64,000 bases of DNA from Parcubacteria group bacterium (lineage in GTDB: Bacteria; Patescibacteriota; Minisyncoccia; Phycocordibacterales; Phycocordibacteraceae), in contig JAQBRG010000003.1 in the NCBI GenBank assembly GCA_028286615.1, positions 211,800 through 275,799 of the forward strand. The letters are read 5' to 3'. The position numbers and the translations under genes were made by a program. The notes below the pieces were generated by a model. The model worked only from the letters and a program-made list of their open reading frames with translations. It made no database searches and had not been told where the DNA came from. Shown piece by piece: positions 20,490-21,630 of the stretch (the stretch's first letter is position 1; each line of letters opens with the position of its first letter).

Positions 20490-20525
20490 ATAGGCGCCCT
20501 CATTAAGTTGAGGACGCCTATTTTC
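20490..20525. terminator. Rho-independent terminator after msrB, left boundary of the GC-rich islet
   Basis: ATAGGCGCCCTCattaagttGAGGACGCCTATTTT. Confidence 0.7.
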
Positions 20526-20540
20526 GTGAAAAGAAAAAGT

Positions 20541-21047
20541 TTAGATGTACGGACGAAGCGCGTTTTCGAGAGCCTTGACTCGAACCTTGCCCCCCGATTG
20601 CTGCGGTTGGAACGCCACTTGCGCATGCTGTCCGCAATATGGCCCTTCATCAAGATCGAGCTTCCGTCCGCAGAAAGTGAAGCTGTCGGCGCACGGATCT
20701 CCTATGGGCCACTTGCACATATGCGCGCCGAGAGTGAGAACGGTTGCTGAACCCGGCGACTCGCAGTAGAGGGAACGGAAACTATCCGGAGCCTCGTGAA
20801 CCACCGCTTTCTTTGGCAGAGGCGGGGATGCGACCGCGACAAGCCGACGAGCAGGCCTGGGTGCGGGAGCCGCCTGTACCCTACGCGGCTTTGAAGCAGT
20901 CTCGCGGCCCGAAAGTCCCAACCGATGCACCTTGCCGATAACTGCATTGCGACTTGTACCGCCCAGCTTTTTTGCGACCTGACTTGCCGACAACCCGTCG
21001 AGCCAAAGTTTCTTGAGAAGAGCAACGCGTTCATCATCCCAACCCAT
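20541..21047 (-). CDS. gcrA: GcrA-family cell-cycle regulator homolog
   Basis: MGWDDERVALLKKLWLDGLSASQVAKKLGGTSRNAVIGKVHRLGLSGR at the N-terminus, and C-terminal CKWPIGDP...FCG...PYC..H, match the GcrA family. GC3-rich codons. Confidence 0.8.
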   Translation of the reverse strand: MGWDDERVALLKKLWLDGLSASQVAKKLGGTSRNAVIGKVHRLGLSGRETASKPRRVQAAPAPRPARRLVAVASPPLPKKAVVHEAPDSFRSLYCESPGSATVLTLGAHMCKWPIGDPCADSFTFCGRKLDLDEGPYCGQHAQVAFQPQQSGGKVRVKALENALRPYI

Positions 21048-21250
21048 GCTACAGCTCCCATCTGAAATACCGGTGTGACCGCCGGCAGTGTATGAGAAAT
21101 GCGAAGAACTTTAGAAGCCCTTCTGGTTTGGATAATACACCCGCGTCATGCAGCTATCCCCATGTGCATCCATTCGTAACAAAAGCGTGTCCATATTGTC
21201 TTGTTTGACACATCCTAAATTCAGGTGTCTACTTACTTCAGGTTAGAACA

Positions 21251-21293
21251 CCTCCCCCGCAGCCGGCCTCCTTGGGACTTGCTTCGGGGGAGG
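21251..21293. repeat. Inverted repeat CCTCCCCCG-N25-CGGGGGAGG upstream of the gcrA-like gene
   Basis: Perfect 9-bp arms at 21251-21259 and 21285-21293. Confidence 0.5.
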
Positions 21294-21360
21294 ACACGAG
21301 ACGATTGGTCTTGGCAATGCATAGTCGTGCATTGATAAACCATCCTCCCCGATATTAGGT

Positions 21361-21585
21361 ATGCCAGTACTAAAGGCACTTGGTCTCGGGGTCGTGATCA
21401 TCGTTCTCAAGGTTCTCACCCCGCAGATCTTTTCTGAACTTCAAGGGACAGCTATAGCATTTCTGCATGGCGCCCACGTTTCTGCTGACATGGCCACAGA
21501 TTTAGCCGCGAGCGCTGGAACATCTATCGAATTCTCGAATGCTCCGCCCAGGCTTCCTCAGGCACCACAGATCGTAGGCTACTAG
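21361..21585 (+). CDS. Hypothetical small protein in the GC-rich islet (doubtful)
   Basis: 74-aa ORF with GC3-rich codons followed by a strong terminator. No family assigned. It could equally be noncoding. Confidence 0.3.
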   Translation: MPVLKALGLGVVIIVLKVLTPQIFSELQGTAIAFLHGAHVSADMATDLAASAGTSIEFSNAPPRLPQAPQIVGY

Positions 21586-21596
21586 CTTCCCTCTCA

Positions 21597-21630
21597 CAAA
21601 AAGGCCGGACTATTTGTCCGGCCTTTTGTA
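21597..21630. terminator. Bidirectional rho-independent terminator, right boundary of the GC-rich islet
   Basis: AAAAAGGCCGGACtatttGTCCGGCCTTTTG. Confidence 0.8.

Follow-up and report, generated by a model that had tools for sequence, protein, structure and literature searches.

GcrA is a cell-cycle transcription factor that is regarded as a hallmark of the Alphaproteobacteria and is linked to the methylation of GANTC sites by CcrM. A gene of this family, gcrA, is present in a 64,000-nucleotide stretch (hereafter the window) of contig JAQBRG010000003.1 from a Parcubacteria group bacterium, that is, in a member of the Paceibacterota of the candidate phyla radiation (CPR, or Patescibacteria). 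The closest described system is GcrA of Caulobacter crescentus (CC_2245; PDB 5YIU/5YIV/5YIX and 7YE1/7YE2), a sigma70 cofactor and reader of N6-methyladenine (m6A) in GANTC, whose zinc ligands, sigma70 contacts and m6A-pocket residues have been described by Wu et al. 2018 (PMC5887438), and whose C-terminal basic patch, K157-K159, contacts non-template DNA (PMC9976885). GcrA homologues are also known from phages, among them gp222 of Caulobacter phage phiCbK, and phiCbK-like phages have been proposed to act on their host by means of this protein (PMC3556154). The comparison of the window gene with these systems makes it probable that it is an intact gcrA derived from Caulobacteraceae, which has long been resident in a Paceibacterota chromosome and has been kept there by selection.

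The open reading frame (ORF) in the window codes for a full-length, intact GcrA. It matches Pfam PF07750 with 166.8 bits (E 6e-49; the gathering score of the family is 26.9 bits), residues 1-154 of the protein covering positions 1-153 of the 155 of the model. Residues 1-168 are aligned with the C. crescentus chain 7ye1_G (E 4e-55), and the crystallised single domains 5yix_B (E 1e-26) and 5yiu_A (E 7e-19) are also matched. An earlier reading of this DNA, made from the sequence only, had recognised a GcrA-family ORF of 168 residues with both domains, and the full-length matches to PF07750 and 7ye1_G bear this out. The length class and the three-part architecture are those of the C. crescentus protein, with 62% identity overall and 37 of 45 residues identical in the DNA-binding domain. 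The zinc ligands C118, C133, C143 and H146 of C. crescentus correspond to C111, C126, C138 and H141 of the window protein, so that all four are present, and the m6A-pocket residues R33, I37 and G38 are all identical. Nearly all contacts to domain 2 of sigma70 are likewise retained: L113, K119, W120, G123, D124, P125, F130, F132, Y142, V149 and A150 are identical, and Y151 is replaced by F146. S126 is replaced by C119, at a position which varies across all CPR copies; C95 and C119 are two extra cysteines by which the window protein differs from that of C. crescentus.

Following the published model of GcrA action (PMC5887438, PMC9976885), the C-terminal CCCH zinc finger would dock on domain 2 of the primary sigma factor, and the N-terminal domain would provide RNA polymerase with an additional DNA-reading head, favouring a subset of promoters. 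The likeliest function, by homology, would be that of a sigma70-tethered transcription cofactor. The window differs from C. crescentus, apart from its host, in the methylation partner, for which the tests covered the 64-kb window and about 57 kb of CPR loci with gcrA. In alphaproteobacterial gcrA loci the observed-to-expected ratio of GANTC was 0.29, GANTC being more strongly depleted there than any other of the 16 comparable palindromes, compared with 0.85 (first-order Markov) or 1.05 (maximal-order) in the window and 0.79, rank 9 of 16, in the CPR loci. Intergenic GANTC was observed 28 times against 28.8 expected and YGAKTCG 3 times against 2.6, both at chance level; an intergenic enrichment of at least 1.5-fold is reported for Alphaproteobacteria in work cited in PMC7987155. 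A motif search of the window and the CPR loci found no ORF for a DPPY-type or CcrM methyltransferase, and an SPPY match was rejected as a methyltransferase because it belongs to YceG. As GANTC is neither depleted nor enriched between genes in the CPR DNA examined, and no gene of the CcrM type is present in it, GcrA in these cells probably does without its classical methylation partner, CcrM/GANTC, or employs another mark.

The non-alphaproteobacterial background of the gene, as proposed from the sequence, is supported on several grounds. The named homologues of the flanking 384-residue DUF8173 protein belong, with one exception, to Patescibacteria, Paceibacterota or Parcubacteria (best 64% identical), and the NCBI entry of the GcrA itself is entitled "GcrA cell cycle regulator [Parcubacteria group bacterium]". 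Three related, syntenic loci without gcrA (L002, L004 and L005) have in common the block VTT, (DUF4383), small transmembrane gene, (msrA/NUDIX), msrB, VKOR, DUF8173, AhpC and HhH-GPD. The sequence-only reading had left room for a chimeric assembly, and an alphaproteobacterial fragment joined into a CPR contig by misassembly or contamination would account for the presence of an otherwise alphaproteobacterial gene family and for the locally raised G+C content (GC). Such an origin is hardly credible, and a chimera was ruled out, since a Logan re-assembly of SRR13312974 yielded a 4344-nt contig 100% identical to window positions 18593-22936, by which both junctions are spanned and exactly reproduced by an independent assembler. 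Moreover, the codon composition of gcrA is host-like and not alphaproteobacterial, CPR genes flank it on either side within a contig of 278 kb, and seven other Paceibacterota contigs, from other samples and assemblers, have the gene at the corresponding site.

The first of these contigs was found in a scan of genomes with the GcrA protein, the best 80 matches of which comprised 79 alphaproteobacterial loci, with Caulobacteraceae on top, and L026, a contig of 'Candidatus Paceibacterota bacterium SMAG_U6922' in which gcrA and msrB converge and the next genes are VKOR, DUF8173 and AhpC. This alphaproteobacterial descent agrees with the horizontal acquisition suggested earlier. Further carriers were sought by a metagenome scan with a DUF8173 alignment and then by tblastn, which located gcrA as the immediate neighbour of msrB in a further six loci. 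Full copies are present in L086, L087, L106 and L116, and L099 is a fragment identical to L116. In L097 (3436-3929) the two domains of the gene are read in different frames, the DNA-binding one in frame 1 and the sigma-interaction one in frame 3. Both are still well conserved, and the gene is either a recent frameshift pseudogene or the result of a sequencing error. In 8 of 8 loci gcrA adjoins msrB at the identical position and in the same orientation. In a neighbour-joining host tree of MsrB and DUF8173 all the carriers belong to one clade, in which 8 of 17 loci contain gcrA, and its sister clade contains none in 11 loci (bootstrap 85). The interval from msrB to the small transmembrane gene is a variable spot, elsewhere occupied by msrA, NUDIX, a 388-residue gene without assigned family or a 154-residue gene; the gcrA site is the variable position of an otherwise conserved block composed of VTT, DUF4383, the small transmembrane gene, the variable spot, msrB, DUF8173 and AhpC. 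Since the same arrangement recurs in one Paceibacterota clade, gcrA is a feature of the lineage, neither a one-off nor a chimera. The other Paceibacterota copies (L026, L086, L087, L106, L116/L099 and the frameshifted L097) resemble that of the window in position on the msrB side, orientation, conserved block, a third-position GC (GC3) near that of the flanking host genes and conservation of the same functional residues; they differ in being 52-61% identical to it and in not forming one clade with it. The VKOR gene between msrB and DUF8173, found in many relatives, is absent from the window (20001 / 18846-20000), L086, L116 and L099.

The age of the gene is indicated by its codon usage and its divergence. 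In every carrier the GC3 of gcrA follows that of the flanking host genes, from 0.52 in a genome of 50% GC to 0.83 in one of 65% GC, and the nearest alphaproteobacterial gcrA genes (P0113, P0045, P0023 and P0002) have values of 0.83-0.95. In P0113, P0045, P0023, P0008 and P0002 gcrA stands in typical alphaproteobacterial neighbourhoods. Between the window gene and its nearest alphaproteobacterial relatives the proportion of synonymous differences (pS) is 0.72-0.82, which is saturated, with a nonsynonymous divergence (dN) of 0.26-0.31. Over all comparisons pS ranges from 0.64 to 0.85 (saturated) and dN from 0.10 to 0.45, with a ratio of dN to synonymous divergence (dS) of about 0.05-0.15; for those comparisons between CPR copies that allow an estimate of dS, the ratio is about 0.07-0.14. 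Judging from these rates, the CPR copies of gcrA are old genes under strong purifying selection. The regions upstream of gcrA were compared by blastn, in which the alphaproteobacterial ones matched each other and the CPR ones matched neither them nor, substantially, one another. Blocks common to the alphaproteobacterial upstream regions were not found in the window, CtrA and DnaA boxes not having been specifically searched for, and the search for a common promoter motif across the CPR upstream regions gave just -10-like hexamers and inconsistent short matches.

These data bear directly on the interpretation favoured by the sequence-only reading, a recent, possibly phage-borne acquisition of a compositionally foreign islet. 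The GC of the ORF is 0.588, which is 3.3 standard deviations (sd) above the mean of the window genes (0.476, sd 0.034), its GC3 exceeds that of the flanking genes by 0.12-0.17, and GcrA homologues do occur in phages. The saturated dS to the closest known relatives, the GC3 of 0.58, which has mostly drifted to host values, against 0.83-0.95 in the putative donors, and the best database match, just 66% identical among 5.8 billion proteins, make a recent event very unlikely. Phage records show 31-47% identity to the window protein and contigs of IMG/VR at most 50%, compared with 59-69% for cellular Caulobacteraceae; in the same way PHROG 12262/16311 give 57-58 bits, compared with 189 bits to cellular Caulobacter GcrA. 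The neighbours of gcrA are conserved CPR housekeeping genes without phage genes nearby, and a search of the locus for flanking direct repeats, integrase genes or phage genes found none. On identity and gene context a phage origin was ruled out. The phage proteins (phiCbK gp222 and its relatives, the IMG/VR contigs and those of Synechococcus phages) are similar to the window protein in belonging to the same Pfam family and in standing in a non-alphaproteobacterial genome. The Synechococcus phages PP438432.1 and OM868079.1, whose GcrA-like proteins are 47% identical to that of the window (31-34% for phiCbK-like phages), represent another non-alphaproteobacterial setting for the family. In the viral contig L125 (IMGVR_UViG_3300033120_000940, 5001-5549) the sigma-interaction domain is almost identical to that of cellular Caulobacteraceae GcrA and the DNA-binding domain is divergent, which suggests domain-wise divergence or recombination among viral copies.

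The description of the islet as rich in GC with a strong GC3 bias was correct for the former and overstated for the latter. GC3 is 0.58, with a mean of 0.477 (sd 0.067) for the window genes, and the bulk of the excess lies in the first and second codon positions (0.67 and 0.51), because the protein is rich in Ala, Pro, Arg and Gly. The noncoding stretch described as rich in GC does exist, with a length of 313 nt at 21048-21360, but its GC of 0.498 exceeds the mean for intergenic DNA (0.432) by only about 1 sd. Although the islet ranks 5-10 in GC among 421 windows, its tetranucleotide deviation is ordinary (z 0.2-1.2, rank 37-158 of 421), and no departure from the surroundings is seen by this measure. 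For the scanning of genomes it follows that a locally GC-rich gene may be an old import, with an excess derived mostly from amino-acid composition. A stronger GC-rich spot is present at 32483-33262 (minus strand; GC 0.60, GC3 0.73), the top tetranucleotide outlier with z 5.1; its product, JWN64_401, has no Pfam domain and is conserved in Paceibacterota, two thirds of it aligning at up to 84% identity. That this ORF might be additional alphaproteobacterial DNA was ruled out, the protein being specific to Paceibacterota. A very large protein is encoded at the left end of the window (1-3624, minus strand) by a single open frame of at least 1208 codons, which is cut by the window edge and contains an interior tetranucleotide outlier (z 4.4 at 2551).

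With regard to the donors, all CPR copies possess the motif PG(S/T)AT..TLGAHMCKW and a C-terminal tail of the type specific to Caulobacteraceae, which are lacking in the other alphaproteobacterial orders sampled. The tail reads RSLRRYI in L026, L087 and L116, is degenerate in the window (NALRPYI) and in L086, and is truncated in L106. The nearest relatives of the window protein are GcrA of the Caulobacteraceae metagenome-assembled genomes P0002, P0003, P0011 and P0023 (65-69% identity), which share with it ADSFTFCG and PYCGQHAQVA(Y/F)QPQQS. Their genes differ from it in their typical alphaproteobacterial neighbourhoods (argF-argD-ABC2-gcrA and phoB/phoU), in a GC3 of 0.83-0.87 and by a saturated dS. 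In 74% of bootstraps the window sequence is placed together with P0023, P0002 and P0011. L086 (3686-4150) shares with Brevundimonas alone an N-terminal extension, the sequences EGQSA, DRVGAL, FSFCG and VYC and the additional G of LGGGVTRN, and joins Brevundimonas in 68% of bootstraps, and L087, L116, L026 and L106 fall among Phenylobacterium-like sequences. Among the sub-lineages of Caulobacteraceae, no fewer than two, and probably three, appear to have CPR copies attached to them, which points to gcrA having been captured or replaced at this locus two times or more. In the host-marker tree the genome of L086 is near that of the window, yet their gcrA types differ.

A single ancient capture beside msrB in the ancestor of the clade, followed by vertical descent and repeated loss, would be an alternative in which the polyphyly is an artefact of long branches and a short alignment. 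The identical position and orientation in 8 of 8 loci, the confinement of the carriers to one host clade and the frameshifted copy, which is what ongoing loss predicts, are in keeping with it, as are the low values of most internal bootstraps. The distances among the four Phenylobacterium-like copies are compatible with the host tree, and the pairwise identities would agree with a star-like radiation whose ancestor resembled the donor and evolved slowly. Such a history is possible but not favoured, in view of the Brevundimonas-only characters and grouping of L086, the grouping of the window copy with P0023/P0002/P0011, the monophyly of CPR GcrA in 0 of 200 bootstraps, and quartet counts which favour separate affinities in a test biased by the choice of nearest neighbours. 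In addition, no gcrA remnants were found in the loci of the relatives without the gene.

Several observations weigh against an intact gcrA of Caulobacteraceae origin kept by selection, or against parts of this interpretation. The zinc finger of the window protein reads C111-X14-C126-X11-C138-X2-H141 compared with C-X14-C-X9-C-X2-H in the family, its second loop being longer by two residues. The C-terminal basic patch is degenerate (SGGKVRVK for KKK), with three basic residues, shifted and interrupted, and other CPR copies have KKK, KRR or KKR. With 213 bits the protein remains below the equivalog cut-off of 280 of NCBIfam NF050816, 'cell cycle sigma 70 cofactor GcrA'. The search for a methyltransferase in this genome covered only 64 kb, GANTC depletion is an indirect proxy, and neither the window nor the CPR loci examined yielded a Paceibacterota rpoD with which the sigma interface could be checked. 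Furthermore, the host tree is built on two proteins only, the GcrA phylogenies are neighbour-joining trees of about 165 columns with moderate support (68-74%), and different GcrA types occupy the same locus. On balance, the derivation from Caulobacteraceae, with long residence under selection, is still considered the probable one.

The features of the locus are collected in the table below. The Pfam matches agree with the earlier assignment of msrB and DUF4383 genes to the two sides of the islet. Both of the terminators thought to bound the islet are real hairpins (z -4.9 to -6.8 against shuffles), although a simple terminator scan called neither. The left one folds with -26.5 and -27.7 kcal/mol (z -6.2 on the plus and -6.5 on the minus strand); gcrA is convergent with msrB there and has the terminator in common with it. 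The right one has z -6.8 (plus) and -4.9 (minus). The boundary that they were taken to form had to be abandoned, as native sequence makes up the right third of the islet: the 74-residue protein is the small transmembrane protein of the conserved block, 54% identical to its syntenic counterpart in L002 and 66% in L004, with a homologue in L005 as well, and tblastn found homologues of the gene in many further loci. Because this gene is native, the right hairpin is the terminator of a native convergent pair, and the foreign DNA extends at most over 20475-21360 (886 nt), that is, gcrA and its 5' region. A search for target-site duplications or mobile-element ends around this insert gave short repeats at chance level only, and its comparison with plasmids gave no match at the DNA level.

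Features of the gcrA locus (nucleotide positions refer to the window, residues to the GcrA protein)
Feature	Position	Strand	Evidence and remarks
msrB (SelR), native	20001..20474	+	Pfam SelR, E 9e-51; constant neighbour of gcrA in 8/8 Paceibacterota loci
Terminator hairpin, bidirectional, msrB (+)/gcrA (-)	20489..20522	.	14-nt arms, 93% complementary
gcrA coding sequence	20541..21047	-	168-residue ORF; exact protein NCBI MDB5264817.1; Pfam PF07750; PDB matches; conserved alignment columns
GcrA N-terminal DNA-binding domain	residues 1-45		
GcrA Pro/Ala/Arg-rich linker	residues ~46-97		
GcrA C-terminal CCCH zinc-finger sigma70-interaction domain	residues ~98-148, then tail		
Divergent intergenic region, 313 nt	21048..21360	.	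Between gcrA and the native 74-residue gene
Shine-Dalgarno-like GGGAG, putative	21055..21059	-	7 nt 5' of the gcrA ATG; read from the sequence
Candidate -10 hexamer TATTAT	21132..21137	-	About 85 nt 5' of the gcrA ATG; tentative
Perfect 9-bp inverted repeat (13 nt at 92%)	21251..21293	.	Probably not significant
Gene of 74-residue membrane-anchored protein, native	21361..21585	+	Syntenic homologues in L002, L004 and L005
Terminator hairpin, bidirectional, 74-residue gene/DUF4383 convergent pair	21599..21627	.	12-nt perfect arms
DUF4383 membrane protein gene, native	21646..22053	-	Pfam DUF4383, E 1e-19; syntenic in L004 and other loci

Within the 5' region, hexamers similar to a -10 element (TATAGT, TATACT or TACAAT) stand at a similar distance from gcrA in other Paceibacterota; a consensus promoter scan of the window did not call the TATTAT candidate. 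The inverted repeat with its 25-nt spacer had been correctly located, but its fold is within chance (z -1.7 and -2.2; equally good folds were obtained from 5-10 of 200 shuffled sequences). An Rfam scan of the intergenic region gave no family at threshold, and the repeat was rejected as a structured element. Elsewhere in the window an HlyD-type adaptor and a 1034-residue AcrB/RND transporter are encoded (33477-38115, plus strand), in what is a small CPR genome, and a Pif1-like helicase with an HTH_40 domain lies at 30631-32304.

The name of the protein was already given by the automatic annotation of NCBI; what is new is the presence of this known family in a phylum where it was not expected and its pattern at the level of a lineage, namely recurrence at one locus, Caulobacteraceae donors and an absent GANTC signature. 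In the literature searched, no paper joining GcrA with Patescibacteria, CPR or Parcubacteria was found. The repeated choice of donors among different genera of Caulobacteraceae invites a further explanation, according to which Paceibacterota living on or with Caulobacteraceae would direct GcrA at the RNA polymerase and GANTC-methylated DNA of the host and not at their own transcription. The sigma70 contacts and the m6A pocket, which remain Caulobacter-like in CPR DNA devoid of a GANTC signature, would be understandable on these grounds, and phiCbK gp222 (PMC3556154) offers a phage precedent. Nevertheless, this mimicry is unlikely: the protein starts with MGWDDERV and has no signal peptide or other export signal, secretion genes are not found nearby, and the same conservation would be expected if the surface of CPR sigma regions 1.2/2.1 were similar. 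Doubtful, too, is the broader proposal of CPR cells in physical association with Caulobacteraceae hosts, which would fit a clade that has captured or replaced gcrA more than once from different genera of Caulobacteraceae, always beside msrB, and in which the sigma70-binding and m6A-reading surfaces are under strong purifying selection although its own DNA is devoid of a GANTC signature. If it were true, CPR cells could couple their own transcription to a Caulobacteraceae host or manipulate the host cell cycle, as proposed for phiCbK-like phages.

Returning to the long-resident gcrA of Caulobacteraceae origin, a canonical GcrA is here under selection in a CPR lineage with tiny genomes and without sign of a GANTC methylation system. 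This raises the question of whether GcrA, once removed from its native circuit, can function more generally as a cofactor of sigma70, and of what serves the CPR bacteria for the control of the cell cycle or of global transcription. The consistent Caulobacteraceae donors provide a testable lead to the partners or hosts of this Paceibacterota clade.

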